Shown here in pieces: positions 21,892 through 32,542 of a stretch of 64,000 nt of DNA. The notes beneath the pieces are model-generated. The model saw nothing but the letters and a program-made list of their open reading frames with translations, was not told the DNA's origin and did not search any database. How positions within the stretch are numbered: position 1 is the first letter of the stretch; each line of letters starts with the position of its first letter. The DNA is from an uncultured delta proteobacterium (GTDB lineage Bacteria; Desulfobacterota; Desulfobacteria; Desulfobacterales; B30-G6): assembly GCA_963823335.1 (NCBI GenBank), contig CAWGLD010000001.1, forward strand, positions 320,001 to 384,000. The letters are read 5' to 3'. A program made the translations under genes and the position numbers.

Positions 21892-23526
21892 CTATTTTTT
21901 GTTATTTCCGTTGGTGAATATCCGGCCGATGCCGTGCAGGGAAACCCCCACAAGCGATCCCAGAATCACAAGCCAGCCCAAGGTATCCAGCAAGCCTGCG
22001 CTGTCGCGGCCCGGCATATAAAAGCCGGCCAGGTTCGCCATCCTGCCCTCATCACGCGTGTGACACTCGCTGCACACCACCACATTCTCTTTGGGGGCAA
22101 CCATGTGCGTGGTAGGATAGACAAAGGTCGTTTTAACAAAATCAAATTCGCCTGAGAACGGTATATCGAGGGATTTGGCACCATTCGAAAGGGCAACCTG
22201 CCAGTCGAGGGTGCTCCAGTAACCTTTGGGTCCCGACAGCAAGGGCGTCAACAGCGTCTTGTGCACCTTGTCGTAGGGCTGAACCCCCTCGTGGACCTTG
22301 AAAGGATAAATACGCGAGTTTTCATCGTTCCGGTCACCCAGTGGATGACTGAGTGCCACAACCCCGGATGGATCAATCGTATCCACTGCCGTGAGAGATT
22401 CAATGGAACCATTGAACCAGAAATATTGCGGTTTCAGATTTTTCTCCCACTTCATATTTCCTTTGATGGAAAGATAGTCTTCCTTCCCGTAGGCTCCCTT
22501 GGTTTTATAGGGTTTGCCGTCTTTGGTTTTCCCGGAAGTAGACCAGTCCCAGGACATTTTTGTCGGATTGACGCGCGCAAATGTCGGGATGTGGCAACTC
22601 TGGCAGGCGACCTTGTCCGTGTGGTCGTTGGCCTTGGATCCGGTCTTATGGGGCGTACTGCTGTGGCAGGATTCGCAGGTGATCTTGGACATCAGGTCAT
22701 CTTCGATCAGGCTTTTGCGATGTGTATAAGCCGGCGTCGTGTACATCCTGCCCGAAATGTTGTGCTGACTTGTGGTGTGGCAGCGGACACAATCGAAATT
22801 CTGACCATCGGTCCCCATATGGACGTCCAGCGCCTTGTTAGGTTTGGTCATGGACGAGTCGAGGTCACCATGCTTTACACCGTCACCACCACCGCCGTAG
22901 AAATGACAGGAGCCGCAGTTCTTCCGGGTAGGAAGGCCCACACTCTGAACGGCCAGCTTAATTTCGGATTGAATCTCATTGGCCAGCTCTTTCATTTCCG
23001 GATCTTCCTCTGACTCTTTCAGGAAGGCATTGAAATCCTCGAATGATTCATCCCAGTTAATTTCTTTGGAGCCATGGCAGACCAGGCAATTGGTGGCTTT
23101 GGTTTCATTGCCCCAGCCAGGATGACAGGAAAGACACCCCTTGTCTTGCCCGTTGTTAGCTGAAATACAGAAATTGTTCAGTGAATAAGCAGATTTCCCC
23201 ATCTGAACACCTTTTTCATTCGTGCCTGCCTTCCATGTCCAGTGGATGGTTTGATGAAATTGTGCTTCCGCCTCGGAATGACAGGAAATACAGGCAGCTG
23301 TCACCTGAGACCCTGACGTAAACGTCTGTTTTAACACCTCGTGCTTGGCGTGATCAGTCGTATTCCAGTGTTCGGCAATTTTGGCAGCCTGCTGCGCCAT
23401 GGTGCGGCCGGGTGCCTGATCTGCCGTTTCCTGAGCTGCCCAAGTTACGGATATCAAGCCTAAAAGAACCCAAACCGGTAGGAGAATAAAAAGAACGCCA
23501 GTGATTGGAGCGTTTGATGATTTCAT
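21892..23526 (-). CDS. otr: Octaheme c-type cytochrome, tetrathionate reductase (Otr) family
   Basis: Signal peptide; 8 CxxCH (CISCH, CLSCH, CLVCH, CGSCH, CVRCH, CESCH, CQSCH, CSECH); NNFCI and GGGDGVKHGDLD motifs; C-terminal TM. Confidence 0.88.
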   Translation of the reverse strand: MKSSNAPITGVLFILLPVWVLLGLISVTWAAQETADQAPGRTMAQQAAKIAEHWNTTDHAKHEVLKQTFTSGSQVTAACISCHSEAEAQFHQTIHWTWKAGTNEKGVQMGKSAYSLNNFCISANNGQDKGCLSCHPGWGNETKATNCLVCHGSKEINWDESFEDFNAFLKESEEDPEMKELANEIQSEIKLAVQSVGLPTRKNCGSCHFYGGGGDGVKHGDLDSSMTKPNKALDVHMGTDGQNFDCVRCHTTSQHNISGRMYTTPAYTHRKSLIEDDLMSKITCESCHSSTPHKTGSKANDHTDKVACQSCHIPTFARVNPTKMSWDWSTSGKTKDGKPYKTKGAYGKEDYLSIKGNMKWEKNLKPQYFWFNGSIESLTAVDTIDPSGVVALSHPLGDRNDENSRIYPFKVHEGVQPYDKVHKTLLTPLLSGPKGYWSTLDWQVALSNGAKSLDIPFSGEFDFVKTTFVYPTTHMVAPKENVVVCSECHTRDEGRMANLAGFYMPGRDSAGLLDTLGWLVILGSLVGVSLHGIGRIFTNGNNKK

Positions 23527-23721: not shown

Positions 23722-24849
23722 TCAAGAGGCAGGTTTCTTGATGGTATATGAACCGTCTTTATTAAAGGTGGCTTCGGCTTCAAGATAGAAGACGTTTTTC
23801 AATTCCGGTCTGACATCCTGAACCATGTAATAAGCCTCACCGCTTCTGGCACCCGTTGAACAGACAAAAACCACGGGTTTGTCCGAAGGCAAAGAACTGA
23901 TCTTACCCTCGAGCTCATCTGTTGGAATATTGACAGCCGTTTTGAAACTTCCGGCAGCAAACTCATCAGGGTCGCGAACATCGATCAACATGATGCTTGC
24001 AGGGTTTTCCATGATAATTTTTTCAAAGGCAGCGATATCGATGGTACCCTCTTCTGCACCGGCTGTTACCTTGACCGGCTCTGCTGCTGCCATTTCCTCT
24101 TTCCATGCCGGGTATCCCGCGGCAAATACCATTACATCTTTGTAGCCCAGCTGAACCGCCTTCCTGGCGGAATTATGACTCAGCTTTCAGGTGTAGCCTT
24201 CGCAGTAGAAAACCAGAGGTTTACTTTTGTCAGCGGGCAGGTCACCTGTCATCTCATCGAACTTGCTGTCCGGCAGGCTGATGGCGCCTGGAATGTGGCC
24301 TTTGTCATACTTGGGGCGTTTGGGGCGTGAATCGATAATCGCAACATCGGCGCTGGTCTCCACCAGTTTTTTTACGACACTGGTCTCGACAGCATAGTAG
24401 TTGCCGGGGGTGCTTTTCCATTTCGGGAATCCGTCTTCGAATACCTTGACGTTCTTGTAACCGAGTTTTTCTGCCTTCCAGGCAGATTTGTGACTCAGTT
24501 TTCAAGTGGGGCCTTCGCAATAAAAAATAAGCAGAGCTTCCTTGTTCTCCGGCAGACTGCTCAGCATGCTTTCGAACTTGCTGTCCGGGATGCTGACGGC
24601 TGAAGGAATGTACCCCTTGTCATATTTCGGACGTTTGGGCCGTGAATCGATGATCATCGTGTCGGCAGGTACCGGCACCATGGCATACTGTTGAACAAAT
24701 GCCACATCAACGATGTCGTGAAATTTCCAGGAAGTGTCTTCCACGGCGCTTGCGGCTTCTGGCGCTTTGGGTGCAGAGGCGCAACCAAAAGTCACCAGCA
24801 GCAGCGCTGCAAGGATGGACACCACCAACAAACTTTTTCTTACTGACAT
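23722..24849 (-). CDS. Triple-rhodanese lipoprotein, putative selenoprotein with two Sec (CxxxxU twice), 375 aa
   Basis: In-frame TGA at 24502-24504 (FYCEGPT-U-KLSH) and 24187-24189 (FYCEGYT-U-KLSH). The frame between them is open and repeats the rhodanese domain. SECIS-like hairpins follow each TGA. Lipobox LVTFGC. Confidence 0.88.
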
Positions 24850-26463: not shown

Positions 26464-27849
26464 ATGGACATATCAAAATACTGGAAAACCATCGTCGACA
26501 CCCTTCAGGATGGCGTCATGGTCGTGGACCCCGGCGGGAAGGTGTTGTCTGTAAACCCGGCCGCAGAACAACTGACCGGTTACATGGCCGAAGAGTTGAT
26601 CGGCAGATCCTGTCGTGTTCTGGACTGTAGCGGGTGTGAAATCATCGATCAGGGTAAAGGAGAGAAATGGTGCGGTCTTTTCCTGAAAGGGAACGTCAAA
26701 GCCAAAAAGTGTTTGATTACCAACAAAGACCACCGATCGATAAATATCATAAAAAATGCAACCATCCTTTATGACCAAGACAGAACCATCATTGGCGCTG
26801 TGGAGACACTGACCGACATGTCTACCCTGGTATCCCAGCGATTTGAAATTTCACAACTGCGCAAAAGCCTGCATCTAGACGAGGGATTTCACGGTTTGAT
26901 CGGAAAATCGCCTGTCATGCAAAACCTCTTCGAACTCATTGAAAATGTCGCCCTGACAGAGGCGCCCGTGATTATAAGTGGCCCAAGCGGCACCGGCAAA
27001 GAACTGGTGGCCCGCGCCATTCACGAAGCCAGCGATCGAAAAGAAGAGCCTTTTGTCAAGGTGAATTGTTCGGCCTTGAATGAAAACCTGCTGGAAAGCG
27101 AATTGTTCGGTCATGTCAGGGGCGCATATTCGGGCGCTGAAAAAAGCAGAATCGGTCGTTTTGAAGCTGCCCACGGCGGCACCATCTTTCTGGATGAAAT
27201 CGGTGATATCAGTCCGACCATCCAGGTCAAGCTGTTGCGAACTCTGGAGGAGAAGGAAATCGAGAGGGTCGGTGACAACCAGCCCATAAAGGTTGATGTA
27301 AGGGTACTCTCGGCAACCAACAAGAACCTGGAGTCGCTGGTGAACCAGAATCGTTTTCGGGATGATCTGTATTTCCGTATCAACGTGTTTCCCATCAACT
27401 GTCCGCCACTCAAGGAACATGTAACGGATATTCCCATTCTCGTGCAGAATTTCATCCGGCTCAACAACCAGAAGAGCGGCAAAACAATCCTGGGCATGAC
27501 ACCGGAGGCCATCGAAAAAATTACTGCCTACGAATGGCCCGGAAATGTCCGCGAGCTGCGCAATGCCATCGAATATGCCTTTGTTCTTTGCTCCAGTGGC
27601 GGAATCGGGGTCAATCATCTGCCACCAAAAATCGCCGGCACTTCACTGGAATGTGTCGCACCTGAAACAAAGAGTGATCGCCCGGGAAAGAAAATAGACG
27701 CATCCAAAAAAAGCGCTCTGATCAAGGCCCTTCGCCAGGCACATGGCAATCGGTCCGAAACTGCCCGCCTTCTGGGTGTCAGCCGGGTGACGGTCTGGAA
27801 ACAGATCAAAAAATTCAAGATCGATTTGTTCAAAGACCTGGCCACGTAA
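26464..27849 (+). CDS. PAS-domain sigma54-dependent transcriptional activator (Fis-type HTH)
   Basis: Cys-rich PAS, GPSGTGKE, ESELFGHVRGAYSGA, FLDEIG, WPGNVREL, C-terminal HTH. Confidence 0.93.
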   Translation: MDISKYWKTIVDTLQDGVMVVDPGGKVLSVNPAAEQLTGYMAEELIGRSCRVLDCSGCEIIDQGKGEKWCGLFLKGNVKAKKCLITNKDHRSINIIKNATILYDQDRTIIGAVETLTDMSTLVSQRFEISQLRKSLHLDEGFHGLIGKSPVMQNLFELIENVALTEAPVIISGPSGTGKELVARAIHEASDRKEEPFVKVNCSALNENLLESELFGHVRGAYSGAEKSRIGRFEAAHGGTIFLDEIGDISPTIQVKLLRTLEEKEIERVGDNQPIKVDVRVLSATNKNLESLVNQNRFRDDLYFRINVFPINCPPLKEHVTDIPILVQNFIRLNNQKSGKTILGMTPEAIEKITAYEWPGNVRELRNAIEYAFVLCSSGGIGVNHLPPKIAGTSLECVAPETKSDRPGKKIDASKKSALIKALRQAHGNRSETARLLGVSRVTVWKQIKKFKIDLFKDLAT

Positions 27850-27853
27850 GATG

Positions 27854-28174
27854 TCATTGTGCTCGGAACAGCTTCTTGAAAAAACCTTTGTTCTCAGGTT
27901 CAGGCAGAGGTAAATCCAGCTGTTTGCAGATTTCTGTTTCTACTTCGAATTGGCCGATGTCCAATCCTTCTACGACAATTTCGTCCCCTACCATTACTGC
28001 CGGTGCTACGGGAAGTTCTAACTCAAAATACTCGTCGGTGATGTACGCTGCTTTTGGCTTGGATATGGTTTCAATCTCAATTTCGTATTTTTCACCCAGA
28101 CCGGGCATCATCTTTTTAAAATGTTTTCATGGCTTGCCATTGGGCTCATTTAGAAAAAACCGGACTTTCAGCAT
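27854..28174 (-). CDS. tsoC: Thioredoxin-like putative selenoprotein with NEPxGxxU motif, 106 aa
   Basis: AGGAGG RBS, then MLKVRFFLNEPNGKP-TGA(28127-28129)-KHFKKMMPG, in frame with ORF 27854-28111 (PVAPAVMV). The family name is from memory and needs HMM confirmation. Confidence 0.78.
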
Positions 28175-28291
28175 TTTTTGCCTCCTGTTTTGCAATACGA
28201 ATAAAGCCGTTAATATTTTGACACGATGCGTTATGACCTTTAAGATTCTTCTCCCAAGCAGTTGGGAAAAAGGGTTCAAGGGGCCCAGGAT

Positions 28292-30040
28292 TCAAGGGTT
28301 CAAGTGTTTGTTTTCCAAGGAAACCATTATCTTTAAAAATTCATTTGGTTCTATATAATCTACCACCCGCAAATCATTTCGCTCACGGCCTGAGGGGTCC
28401 AGGAATACGACCGTTGGAACACCTTTGACCTTGTATTTACGTAACAGGTGGTCATAACTTTGACGGTCCTTTTTAGTAAGATCCACTTTCACCATGACAA
28501 ATTCCTCTTGAGAAAGCTTGACGATATCCGGATGATGAAATGTAATCTGGTCCAACTCCCGGCATGGCGCACACCAATCAGCATAAAAATCGATGATCAC
28601 CGGTTTATTATTTTCTGCTGATTCCGCCAAAAGCCGGTCCGAATAATTGTGCCAGTAGACAGACGGTCCTTTGACCATTTGGTTGCCGATCAGAACGATT
28701 CCCATCACCAGGCAAACGGTGCCAATGATAGATTTTATCCAGGCAAACGAACGGAAAGTCGCTGCGCTTTTATCCAGCCATCCCAGATGAACACCGGCTG
28801 TAATGACAATGGTGGCAAGGATATATTTCTGTAGGACCCATGGCAGAATTGGCCGGATAAAGTAGGCGGCCATCCCGATGAGTACCCATCCCATGAGCCG
28901 TCGCACCCAATTCATCCATTCGCCGGATTTTGGCAGCTTTGCCAGTTGACCTGAAAACAATGCCAGGACAAACAAAGGTGTGCCCAATCCCAGGCTTAAA
29001 ATGAAAAAAATGACAAATCCAACCAGCGGGTCGCCAATTGCTGCAACCCAGGTCAGAAGCCCCAGCACGAAAGGACCGATACATGGTGCAGCCACCACAC
29101 CCAAGGTTATCCCCATGAAAAAGGAGCCAAAAAATCCCGTGTAGGATTTGGAGGCTGCCTGGGTCAGCCAAAAGGGAAGCCTAAGTTCCCAAAATCCGAA
29201 AAGACTCATGGCAAAGGCAGTCATCACTGATGCGATCGCAATCAGCACCAGAGGGTTTTGAAGTAATGCACCGATTAAACCTCCTGTGAGAGCTGCGATT
29301 ACACCCAGTAACGAGTTGGTTAGTGCCAATCCCCCAATGTAGCAGATACCGTGTCCGATAAGTCCCCGTTTACCCTGAGTGCTTCTTCCACCGAAATATG
29401 AGACTGTGATGGGGATCAGGGGATAGACACAAGGTGTGAGGTTCAACGCAAGACCACCGGCGAAGACACCCAACAGCGTCCATAGAAGTGCCCAACCAGA
29501 TAAGGAGAGATTCGATTCGGAAGGGGTCGTTTTTGATAACGGGTTCAATTTGCCCTGGGCGACCGGAAACCCTTTTGATTGCCAATGAGGATATCCTTCT
29601 GGATAGCGATATACATTTTGATACCCTAATTCTACGGCTACCCGAGCCGCCGAGTCGCTGCGGACTCAAGCCAGGCCCGCTCAGTAAAAAACAATCGTTT
29701 TTTCCTTATCTGGCCCAAGAAACGCTTTCAATTCCCCTTTTTTCTGCCATCTTGCCCACCACGTAGGTTCAATGGGGAAATTTACACTCTCGGCTATGTG
29801 GCCGGCACGGTGCTCCCATTCCTGGCGTGTGTCTACCAGCAGGATCTTTTCCTGATTTGACGGATACAGTTTCGACAGCGCATCAACATCTATCAGCCGA
29901 TAGCCACCGTTTTCGGCCTCCTGTTCAACTTGTGCCATGTTCGATACCACTATTGGCACCGGCAAATTGGAGTACCAGAGGACCAACACGGTAATTGAGA
30001 CGGCTAAGCATGGCAGAAGGATGGATCGAAAAATTTTCAT
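28292..30040 (-). CDS. Rhodanese-DsbD(TM)-thioredoxin fusion, putative selenoprotein with UxxxxU motif, 582 aa
   Basis: IVFY-TGA(29681-29683)-AGLA-TGA(29666-29668)-VRSDSAARVAVELGYQNVYRYPEGYPHW completes the rhodanese domain and continues in frame into DsbD (LTPCVYP, APC.GP, WCAPC). Confidence 0.85.
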
Positions 30041-30741
30041 CGGATTGTTCCTCCGCTCTCAGACAATTTCTCTTCCCCCTCAGATACCGCAAATCCCATT
30101 GCCCGCCAATCCTGGATTCCTTCTTCAAGGCGAACGGCATTGAAACCTCTTTTTCTTAGCATTTCTACGGCCTGGACAGCCAAGACACAATACGGTCCCC
30201 GGCAATATGCGACAATTTCCTGATCCTTAGGAAGTTTAGAAAATAATTCTTCAAGATGTCTCAGCGGTACAGATAAGGCCCCAGGGATGTGGCCCGCGTG
30301 ATATTCCGATTCCGGCCGAACATCAAGAACTGTTGCGGAGCCATTTTTTACACGCTGCAAAAGATCTTTTCTATCAACTGGTTCCATGCTTTCTTTACCT
30401 TCCAAAAAACGACGATTGATCATCTCGACCTCTGCCAATCGGTTTTCAGCCAATACGCGCATGGATCTGAAGAACTCACAAACCATTTGATCCGCAAGAC
30501 GGTACGTGACATACAGGCCTTCTTTCTCCGCTTCAATCAGGCGGGCCGCTCGAAGAACCTGAAGGTGCTGGGAGGTGTTGGCCGGGGTCAAACCGGTTTC
30601 TTGAGTTAAGGTTTCAACGGTTTTTTCACCCTGACAGAGAAGGTCAAGCAACTCCAGGCGTTTCGGGCTGGAAACGGCTTTACCAATTCTTGAGAATTGC
30701 TCATATATGGCATCCTTGAATTTTCTGTTTGGACTTTTCAT
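30037..30741 (-). CDS. ArsR/SmtB-family regulator fused to a rhodanese domain
   Basis: SPKRLELL...NTSQHL..LR wHTH; LDVRP..EY..GHIPGA; YCRGPYC. Confidence 0.92.
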   Translation of the reverse strand: MKSPNRKFKDAIYEQFSRIGKAVSSPKRLELLDLLCQGEKTVETLTQETGLTPANTSQHLQVLRAARLIEAEKEGLYVTYRLADQMVCEFFRSMRVLAENRLAEVEMINRRFLEGKESMEPVDRKDLLQRVKNGSATVLDVRPESEYHAGHIPGALSVPLRHLEELFSKLPKDQEIVAYCRGPYCVLAVQAVEMLRKRGFNAVRLEEGIQDWRAMGFAVSEGEEKLSESGGTIR

Positions 30742-30750
30742 GACCGCTCC

Positions 30751-30803
30751 TCTACTATTCAATTAATATATTGAATAGTAGATTTAAAACTGAACACTGT
30801 CAA
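30751..30803 (-). promoter_or_regulatory. Sigma70 promoter with an overlapping 13-6-13 perfect inverted-repeat operator
   Basis: Minus strand TTGACA-17nt-TACTAT; TCTACTATTCAAT-N6-ATTGAATAGTAGA at 30751-30782 covers the -10 box. Confidence 0.85.
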
Positions 30804-31101
30804 TGTTTTCTTATGTATCAAGTTTTGGAGGATAAATGGTGGATGGAAATTCTGGTGGGTTTACATTTGCTATCAGCTATCTGCTGTGGGCTAATTGTTG
30901 CTTCACTTGAATCCTGGAACCCCTCGAGTATCAGTTTTATTTTTTCACTGATCGTCTGATGGCCCTACCCGGATAAACGCTATGTATCGCTGGAAGCACT
31001 GGATATTCGCGATTTTGCCCGTGACGATCCACGCGGATTTTTAGCCGAGCATGCCGATTGGAAACATTCCAAATCTGTCCGCTCCTTAAGACGCATTTCA
31101 C

Positions 31102-31377
31102 TTAAGGGCTCTTCTTTATGGGTTTGCCTGGACAAACACCTTTAAGCACTCTTGAGTCCCTCACCACAACGGTTCCGGTGACCACCACAAAGGGAATGCC
31201 ACTGGAAGGCAGTCCGCCGTCTTTCATGGTCGCGTTGTCTTTGACGGTTTTCGAGTCAAAGACGGTGATATCGGCGTCTGTACCGACCTGGATGCGGCCT
31301 TTATGTGCCATCTGATCTACACCATTGTACTGGAGAAACTGGGCAATGAGATAGGTCATTTTCGAAACGCCATCCAT
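31102..31377 (-). pseudogene. C-terminal remnant of an amidohydrolase (D-aminoacylase-like)
   Basis: KGRIQVGTDADITVFD...PSSGIPFVVV.G..VV...PGKPI only; the N-terminal catalytic barrel is missing. Confidence 0.7.
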
Positions 31378-31413: not shown

Positions 31414-32109
31414 TTAAAACCGAAATCCCTTCCAGATAAAATACATACCCATTACCATCATCAAAACAGCACCGATCTGGTATACTTTTTCGCGCTGCCG
31501 CAACCAACGCAGATCCGTGAGTCTCGACACCAGAAAAAGCGCCGGCATGGTGCCGAAACCAAAACAGAGCATGAGACCCGCCCCGGAAAACACACCGCCC
31601 AGAGTGGTGTCTGCCTCCATTCCTGAGCGTGCAGCCGCAAGCAGGGCGGTATAAACCGGCCCGCAGGGCAGCAGCCCGAGAAGCAGTCCGAGAGGTAGAT
31701 ACATCAGGGGATGCTTCTTTTTCTGCAGCAGCTTTTTAAAAGCCCCGCTGATGAAGGTGCCAACCGGGGGCGCCGCCCGGAAGATGATACCGCTTGGCAC
31801 CCAGCCGGTCATTGCCAGACCCATCAGGATGATAAGGACACCCGCAGCCACCATGACCCCTTTTTGCAAACCATCGATACTTTCTGCAAAACGGGTGAAG
31901 GAGGCCATGCCACCTACGATTGCACCCAGGAGACCATAGGTCAGGGTTCGGCCGGTAGTGTAAAACAGATGGGGCCAGACCGATGGAGCACCCTTTAAAT
32001 TCAGTGAAAGCGAAATGACGATGGGCCCACACATACCGATACAGTGCCCGAAACCGATGCTAACACCGGTTGTGAAGAAGAGAATATATATGGAACTAGT
32101 AGACAACAT
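31414..32109 (-). CDS. DsbD_2/TauE-like membrane protein (cbb3/Cu maturation-associated)
   Basis: GHCIGMCGP, GRTLTY, GLLPCGPVY and FGFGT.P motifs. Confidence 0.85.
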   Translation of the reverse strand: MLSTSSIYILFFTTGVSIGFGHCIGMCGPIVISLSLNLKGAPSVWPHLFYTTGRTLTYGLLGAIVGGMASFTRFAESIDGLQKGVMVAAGVLIILMGLAMTGWVPSGIIFRAAPPVGTFISGAFKKLLQKKKHPLMYLPLGLLLGLLPCGPVYTALLAAARSGMEADTTLGGVFSGAGLMLCFGFGTMPALFLVSRLTDLRWLRQREKVYQIGAVLMMVMGMYFIWKGFRF

Positions 32110-32542
32110 TGAAAGTGAATACAACGCTGCCGATATCCGGCAGGGTGATCGTGGCCTGCCAGATGGTTTTGCCACTTTTGCAGCGGACGATTACCCCCTG
32201 GCCTTCATATATGGCCGCGTCGTTTTTTGTGAGTATGACCTGGTTCGGTCCCATTTTCATACCGGGCATACCCAAATCGATAAAGGGTGGTTTCGAAAGC
32301 GGATCCCCGCTTATCTTGACCTGAAATATCAAGTCCTTCATGGCTTTCACGGGTTTGGGAAAAATGTTCAGATCGACGGTCCTGTTGTCGATCTGCTTCC
32401 GGCAGCCGCCTGACTGGATATCGCAATCCACAACGTCTTCCGCTGCCAGACTAACGCTGCTATGGCAAACTGAAAGGATCAGAAGGGCGAGAAACAGGAC
32501 ACGCATACCTGCCAGGTGGGAATTGAATCTACATGTTCTCAT
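32096..32542 (-). CDS. Exported YtkA/FixH-like protein, possibly Cu-binding
   Basis: Signal peptide; CDI..GGC, LGMPGMKMG and RC.SG..W motifs; GGAGG RBS. Confidence 0.6.
   Translation of the reverse strand: MRTCRFNSHLAGMRVLFLALLILSVCHSSVSLAAEDVVDCDIQSGGCRKQIDNRTVDLNIFPKPVKAMKDLIFQVKISGDPLSKPPFIDLGMPGMKMGPNQVILTKNDAAIYEGQGVIVRCKSGKTIWQATITLPDIGSVVFTFNVVY

Follow-up and report, generated by a model that had tools for sequence, protein, structure and literature searches.

Within a 64,000-nucleotide stretch of DNA from an uncultured delta proteobacterium (GenBank contig CAWGLD010000001.1; hereafter the window), the reverse-strand gene at 28292..30040 encodes a rhodanese–DsbD–thioredoxin fusion whose frame contains two TGA codons 15 nt apart. 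By its sequence the gene belongs to TsoB, a family that is already catalogued, so the protein family itself is not new. We give a probability of roughly 80% to the reading as a whole, in which the gene is this catalogued TsoB, both UGA codons are decoded as selenocysteine (Sec, U) through a conserved 35-nt RNA element, and the product would work in an electron relay that we put forward as a working model.

The tsoB coding sequence (28292..30040 (−)) has 582 codons and a terminal TGA at 28292-28294, and its ATG (30038-30040) shares an ATGA overlap with the stop codon of an upstream gene whose product joins an ArsR-type regulator to a rhodanese domain. Under translation table 11 the same stretch appears as two open reading frames (ORFs), 29681..30040 (119 amino acids) and 28292..29548 (418 amino acids). 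Translation of 28292-30040 (−) with TGA as U joins them into a single 582-residue protein, in which U120 and U125 fall within the sequence VFYUAGLAUVRSDSAA. The first TGA (TGA1, 29681-29683 (−)) is in frame and corresponds to Sec120, which in alignment stands at the catalytic Cys position of a rhodanese loop; the second (TGA2, 29666-29668 (−)), five residues past Sec120, corresponds to Sec125 and lies within the 5′ arm of an RNA hairpin described below.

Starting from the N terminus, the protein has a hydrophobic segment (residues 3-21; 29978..30034 (−)), recognized by hydropathy, which would be a signal anchor or signal peptide, followed by about eight further hydrophobic stretches along the chain. 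Pfam places the domains in the order Rhodanese 62-155, DsbD_TM 186-399 and Thioredoxin_7 463-549. The rhodanese domain (29576..29857 (−); PF00581, E 3.9e-15) also matches rhodaneses in the PDB. The DsbD-type transmembrane domain (28844..29485 (−); PF02683, E 2.2e-42) carries Cys204 and Cys320, and the C-terminal thioredoxin-like domain (residues 463-571; 28328..28654 (−); PF13899 and PF13098) carries a C490-A-P-C493 motif. All four of these cysteines are invariant in an alignment of 56 homologues. When the protein is aligned to 6mxv, 3d1p and 2hhg, which are solved rhodaneses, U120 pairs with their catalytic Cys; the TsoB loop exceeds theirs by two residues (FYUAGLAUVRS versus FYCGG--GFRS), with the second Sec inside the extra stretch. 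A preliminary description of this locus, made from the sequence alone, had seen the two TGAs as FY-U-AGLA-U-VRS in a rhodanese active-site loop, had noted that readthrough would fuse two ORFs into one rhodanese–DsbD–thioredoxin protein, and had allowed that such a family might already be catalogued; each of these points is borne out by the translation, the domain order, the alignment of the loop and the family match given next.

The NCBIfam selenoprotein model NF045694 (seleno_TsoB, ‘rhodanese/DsbD fusion-like selenoprotein’), a type of hidden Markov model that the preliminary description had suggested for this purpose, matches residues 6-574 to profile positions 2-570 of 572 with 949 bits against a cutoff of 805 (E 6.3e-286). 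TsoB is entered in the table of a 2026 review with the motif UxxxxU and 2 Sec (PMC13188914); the same table holds TsoA (LULAxC), TsoC, TsoX and TsoY, and the review expands Tso as ‘three selenoprotein operon’, crediting Haft & Tolstoy 2025, mSystems 10:e0141724 (PMC13188914). The full-length match, the order of the three domains, the UxxxxU motif with 2 Sec and a tsoC gene directly downstream are all shared with the catalogued family. As in DsbD of the E. coli type (NF001419, protein-disulfide reductase), the transmembrane domain of TsoB has two conserved Cys, and a CxxC motif marks its thioredoxin-like domain at the C terminus, but the N-terminal alpha domain of DsbD is replaced in TsoB by the double-Sec rhodanese domain. 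The DsbD profile matches only residues 175-573 (profile 158-570 of 574), leaving its alpha-domain part (1-157) unmatched.

Other selenoproteins resemble TsoB in part. Rhodanese-like forms 1-4, as they appear in the review table (PMC13188914), and the CxU family NF041203 (rhodanese_LYCAU) share the rhodanese fold and a Sec in or beside the catalytic loop. In contrast to these single-Sec or Cys families, TsoB has two Sec, and it scores 39 against the NF041203 cutoff of 115. A eukaryotic diselenide family, which we group with the UxxU selenoproteins, was reportedly described by Shchedrina et al. in 2007. UxxU selenoproteins are recorded in the Prx-like 2 family of ocean metagenomes (PMC2398784); they also have a closely spaced Sec pair for which a diselenide is possible, but with a thioredoxin/Prx fold and x2 spacing, as opposed to the rhodanese loop and x4 spacing of TsoB.

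The two TGA codons are conserved together. An alignment query with the N-terminal domain, taking one genome per species, gave 221 relatives, of which the best 80 were kept. These are labelled as uncultured Desulfobacterales, Desulfobacteraceae, Syntrophobacteraceae, Desulfobulbia, Desulfomonilaceae, Thermodesulfobacteriota and ‘delta proteobacterium’, with a few unspecific labels. TGA stands at both positions in all 80 loci (79 by a first pattern, and L016, with FLUAGLSU, by a looser one), well beyond what chance would give, and FYU-AGL[AT]-U-VRSDSAA is nearly invariant among them; the loss of Cys or TGA from homologues, which the preliminary description had named as evidence against Sec, did not occur in this set. 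Among the 120 best hits in the protein database, 116 are 378-458 amino acids long and start downstream of both TGAs, as is to be expected of gene callers that end at these codons. The region from TGA2 to the called start codes for the rhodanese domain's second half, which is conserved. Only four of the 120 are full-length, and three of these (P0044, P0046 and P0095) have Cys at both positions (C-x4-C), the kind of homologue that the preliminary description had proposed looking for. TGA terminates tsoB, tsoC and the ArsR–rhodanese gene alike, and is therefore not a general sense codon here. It is thus very unlikely that the two TGAs are ordinary stops, leaving a truncated rhodanese gene and a separate DsbD gene or a pseudogene, or that they belong to a different genetic code: the two ORFs under table 11 and the many database gene calls that begin past the TGAs would suit ordinary stops, but the coding of half a conserved domain between TGA2 and the called start, the maintenance of the frame and of both TGAs in all 80 loci, the Cys forms and the use of TGA as terminator in three neighbouring genes all argue against such a reading.

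On the RNA level, two short predicted hairpins follow the TGAs and abut one another. Hairpin 1 (29651..29668 (−)) pairs UGAGUC with GACUCG around the loop CGCAGC; it contains TGA2 and starts 12 nt past TGA1. Hairpin 2 (29634..29650 (−)) pairs GCGGCU with AGCCGU around the loop CGGGU, which starts 21 nt past TGA2. For comparative analysis, 88 nt around both TGAs were aligned for the window and the 80 loci, giving 81 sequences without gaps. RNAalifold on this alignment predicts hairpin 2 by itself. In the two-hairpin structure 97.8% of cells are standard pairs; column shuffles give 94.9%, and none of 500 attains the observed value. Changes on both sides of a pair occur in 28 cells where 4.0 are expected. 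All cells of hairpin 2 (100%) are paired, and two of its pairs show compensatory changes, in 13 and 14 sequences; for hairpin 1 the paired share is 95.7%, and this hairpin is nearly invariant, with 1 compensatory change. Synonymous-codon entropy falls to 0.2-1.3 bits only at codons +6 to +15 after TGA1, which are exactly those of both hairpins, whereas four- and six-fold codons on either side, including the four codons between the TGAs, show about 1.8-2.2 bits. A search of the window against Rfam at gathering thresholds gave no match. Two longer single-hairpin models, both derived from single-sequence folding of the window and both starting directly past UGA1, were rejected in favour of the two short hairpins because their pairing in the alignment does not exceed that of shuffles: 84.2% versus 83.9% (reached by 107 of 500 shuffles) for one and 82.8% versus 82.7% (170 of 500) for the other.

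A bacterial selenocysteine insertion sequence (SECIS) must sit just 3′ of its UGA. The neighbouring genes offer candidates for comparison: SECIS-like loops stand at 24 nt in tsoC (GGUCU or AGGUU), at 20 nt in tsoA at other loci (AGGUG), and at 22 nt (GGA) and 21 nt (AGGAA) in a triple-rhodanese gene of the window described below, so that these elements have GG/GU loops at 20-24 nt, as in hairpin 2. In the bacterial SECIS (bSECIS) model given in a figure legend of the review (Fig. 2, PMC13188914), the loop is 3-9 nt, the stem 4-16 bp and the UGA-to-loop distance 16-37 nt, with a G, usually followed by G/U, at the start of the loop and a minimum free energy of at most −7.5 kcal/mol. Hairpin 2 with UGA2 fits every one of these constraints (5-nt loop, 6 bp, 21 nt and −7.5 kcal/mol folded alone, exactly at the limit); its loop reads CG[G/U]GU, and GG/GU is present in 81 of 81 sequences. 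It is the best SECIS candidate on these features. With UGA1, hairpin 1 has a 6-nt loop with G second, 5-6 bp and 18 nt, within the bSECIS ranges, but its energy in the window, −6.3 kcal/mol, falls short of the limit, and its loop mostly lacks G[G/U]. The arrangement also departs from the bSECIS consensus by having two abutting hairpins for two UGAs at a distance of 15 nt, the second of which is base-paired within hairpin 1. The preliminary description was right that both hairpins exist and that hairpin 1 contains TGA2, and its proposal of back-to-back SECIS elements stands in part, in so far as both hairpins are conserved and hairpin 2 passes the bSECIS comparison in full; the GG/GU motif together with a spacing of about 21 nt belongs to hairpin 2 only.

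Several observations weigh against decoding of both UGAs as Sec, or against the wider reading of the gene and its operon. None of selA, selB or selD is found among the 58 ORFs scanned in the window, and ARAGORN finds no tRNA in it, hence no tRNA-Sec. The portions of the literature consulted contain no experimental demonstration of Sec in any TsoB. The fourth full-length homologue, P0043, reads VFY-G-HGLA-R-VRSD, and because it has Gly and Arg at the Sec positions, the Sec/Cys pair is not universal. The rhodanese loop of this protein may be redox-dead. The match to the DsbD profile, at 261.9 bits, is below the curated cutoff of 330. No tsoA gene is present, and LULAxC with Sec occurs in no frame of the window, so that the locus is not a full ‘three selenoprotein operon’. 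On the RNA side, hairpin 1 has a free energy of −6.3 kcal/mol in the window, weaker than the bSECIS limit, and GG/GU is found in its loop in only 22 of the 81 sequences. Single sequences fold no better than shuffles (z −0.34, −0.66 and −0.13 for the 88-nt, 35-nt and 50-nt segments), and for this reason the support for the hairpins is comparative, not thermodynamic.

We propose that recoding would proceed through the conserved 35-nt RNA element beginning at UGA2. Hairpin 2 would be the SelB-binding SECIS for UGA2, and hairpin 1 would be either a second, atypical SECIS for UGA1 or a fold that brings hairpin 2 within range of UGA1. The first of these possibilities, the one put forward in the preliminary description, in which hairpin 1, its loop 18 nt past UGA1, serves UGA1 and, once it has melted, hairpin 2 serves UGA2, we place somewhat short of an even chance. 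It would agree with the conservation of both hairpins without an insertion or deletion in 81 sequences, with the two spacings inside the 16-37 nt range and with a G at loop position 2 in both. The start of hairpin 1, 12 nt after UGA1, is also close to the spacing of the minimal E. coli element. The low count of GG/GU in the hairpin 1 loop speaks against it, given that the motif is present throughout in hairpin 2 and in all neighbour SECIS elements, as do the energy of hairpin 1 and its single compensatory change.

The second possibility, which we consider somewhat unlikely, is a telescoping use of one SECIS for both codons, with hairpin 2 alone binding SelB. With the ribosome at UGA1, the folded 18-nt hairpin 1 would be looped out, shortening the effective distance to hairpin 2 from 36 to 18 nt (36−18); at UGA2, hairpin 1 would be melted because its 5′ arm includes this codon, and hairpin 2 would then stand at 21 nt. 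Such a scheme would account for the position of UGA2 inside hairpin 1 and for the abutment of the hairpins without a spacer in 81 of 81 sequences, as well as for a hairpin 1 stem that is frozen at synonymous sites while its loop lacks GG/GU, and its effective distances of 18 and 21 nt are near the 20-24 nt of the neighbour elements. Against this, it is drawn from geometry, and the linear distance of 36 nt is already just within the 16-37 nt range, so that looping out may not be needed. No precedent for it was found in the literature, in searches that were not aimed at this question; these searches, on two-UGA decoding and on UxxU, gave no statement on the decoding of closely spaced bacterial Sec codons.

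For the protein, the working model follows the established electron relay of DsbD. The rhodanese domain would hold the place of the DsbD alpha domain, with the DsbD-type transmembrane and thioredoxin-like domains following, and the U-x4-U pair would sit within the elongated active-site loop. The N-terminal hydrophobic segment and the hydrophobic stretches after it would suit a DsbD-like topology with the rhodanese and thioredoxin-like domains both extracytoplasmic. Electrons would pass from a cytoplasmic reductant to the membrane pair C204/C320, on to the CAPC thioredoxin domain and finally to the Sec pair outside the cytoplasm, which would cycle between diselenide and diselenol or bind a chalcogen or soft metal. 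Control of expression would fall to the ArsR-type regulator, whose gene is directly upstream. The diselenide and its supply with electrons by a DsbD-type route are proposed from homology, and the electron path, topology and substrate are all put forward at this conditional level. The ArsR-type regulator, a nearby octaheme cytochrome of the tetrathionate-reductase family and the further rhodaneses of the neighbourhood suggest that the substrate is a species of sulfur, selenium or a metalloid. A complex prediction for the rhodanese and thioredoxin domains of the Cys-form homologue P0046 scored 0.00, against a mark of 0.32, and speaks neither for nor against docking.

It is unlikely, in our estimate, that the Sec pair instead binds or transfers soft metals or metalloids (As, Hg, Cu, Se or Te), with TsoC as its chaperone, and does not act as a cycling diselenide reductase. 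The ArsR/SmtB type of the upstream regulator would be in keeping with a metal site, as would a TsoC model whose best structural matches are the arsenic metallochaperone ArsD and thioredoxins. Those matches are all weak, however; the conserved membrane Cys pair and the CAPC motif indicate electron transfer; and the regulator also matches the profile of the sulfite-sensing repressor BigR (34.7 bits, cutoff 155), so that a sulfur signal is equally possible.

The operon of the window differs from the one catalogued. The upstream gene (30037..30762 (−)), whose stop overlaps the tsoB start, encodes a fusion of an ArsR/SmtB regulator with a rhodanese domain, whose loop, AYCRGPYCVLA (C-x4-C), includes the YCRGPYC noticed in the preliminary description. 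The fusion protein scores 44.8 bits with the TsoR profile NF045707, under the cutoff of 115. As opposed to the catalogued Tso operon, therefore, the window has this fusion in place of a regulator at the TsoR cutoff, and no gene for TsoA (LULAxC); motif searches of the window for TsoA, TsoX and more UxxxxU genes gave tsoB and tsoC only. The same arrangement recurs elsewhere. Upstream of tsoB, in the 72 loci with at least 1300 nt of upstream sequence, the ArsR–rhodanese fusion is found in 15 (L001-L004, L007, L017, L027, L037, L045, L046, L048, L050, L061, L064 and L071) and TsoA in 29, with both in none and neither in 28. The fusion seems to replace TsoR plus TsoA, and the window holds a recurrent two-selenoprotein variant of the Tso operon. 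A promoter and terminator scan of 27700-31200 yielded no excess of sites over shuffles, with a single sigma-70-like site in front of the ArsR gene, at 30803-30775 (−).

The second selenoprotein gene, tsoC (27854..28174 (−)), lies 117 nt downstream of tsoB and encodes a NEPxGxxU protein of 106 amino acids (NCBIfam NF045708, 145 bits, cutoff 45). TsoC is found in 54 of the 68 loci with at least 2000 nt of downstream sequence. Its Sec16 corresponds to the TGA at 28127-28129, followed by a SECIS-like hairpin, GCCC-GGUCU-GGGU, at 28094-28106 that is conserved in the loci. The protein has no Pfam match. An AlphaFold (AF2) model from a 55-row alignment, with a predicted local distance difference test (pLDDT) value of 83, shows a thioredoxin-like fold in which Sec16 opens helix 1; residue 83 is a second Cys and is mostly conserved. 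ArsD, SA0789 and thioredoxins are its best matches among solved structures, all of them weak (E ~4e-3, none at or below 1e-3; TM ~0.5). On this model one may speculate that TsoC is a cytoplasmic partner or chaperone. Further genes with the motif NEPxGK[TP]U stand beside tsoC in L016, L024, L042, L043 and L052 (about 1750-1900 nt after TGA1) and upstream in L028 and L042; these second TsoC-like genes are therefore TsoC paralogues at those loci.

Outside the operon, a second gene of the window has in-frame TGAs. A single frame at 23725..24849 (−), with its stop at 23722-23724 and TGAs at 24502-24504 and 24187-24189, encodes a lipoprotein-like protein of 375 amino acids (LVTFGC) with three rhodanese domains. 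In domains 1 and 2 the loops read FYCEGPT-U-KLSH and FYCEGYT-U-KLSH, that is, C-x4-U, with the same spacing as the U-x4-U of TsoB. A good hairpin stands after either TGA, its loop and distance as given above; that of the first has z −3.8. Cys stands at both TGA positions in 12 of 13 aligned homologues; the remaining one, P0127, has Trp at both (GPTW and GYTW) and looks like a TGA-containing gene translated by its source with TGA as Trp. No NCBIfam family matches at its cutoff, the best being the rhodanese part of TsoB at 112 bits, and the gene is possibly that of an unnamed double-Sec rhodanese selenoprotein. It lies directly upstream of the octaheme tetrathionate-reductase-family cytochrome gene (21892..23526). 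On the other side of tsoB, upstream of the ArsR–rhodanese gene, are a DsbD_2 (PF13386) membrane protein gene (31414..32175 (−)), a 148-amino-acid ORF with a signal-like N terminus that overlaps it (32096..32542 (−)) and a 91-amino-acid ORF (31102..31377 (−)) whose match to a 517-residue amidohydrolase profile is confined to the C-terminal end of that profile and which may be a gene remnant.

With this gene TsoB, a family whose UxxxxU motif and operon are already catalogued, gains a further member, and the locus documents a recurrent variant of that operon, with an ArsR–rhodanese fusion in place of TsoR and TsoA. The mechanistic interest lies in the insertion of two Sec 15 nt apart and in the role that a membrane-fed, extracytoplasmic Sec pair would have in a rhodanese loop. 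The conserved abutting hairpins would form a compact 50-nt cassette for double Sec insertion and, if a single SECIS is indeed used twice, the arrangement would amount to a spacer switch built into the RNA for the insertion of two Sec five residues apart.

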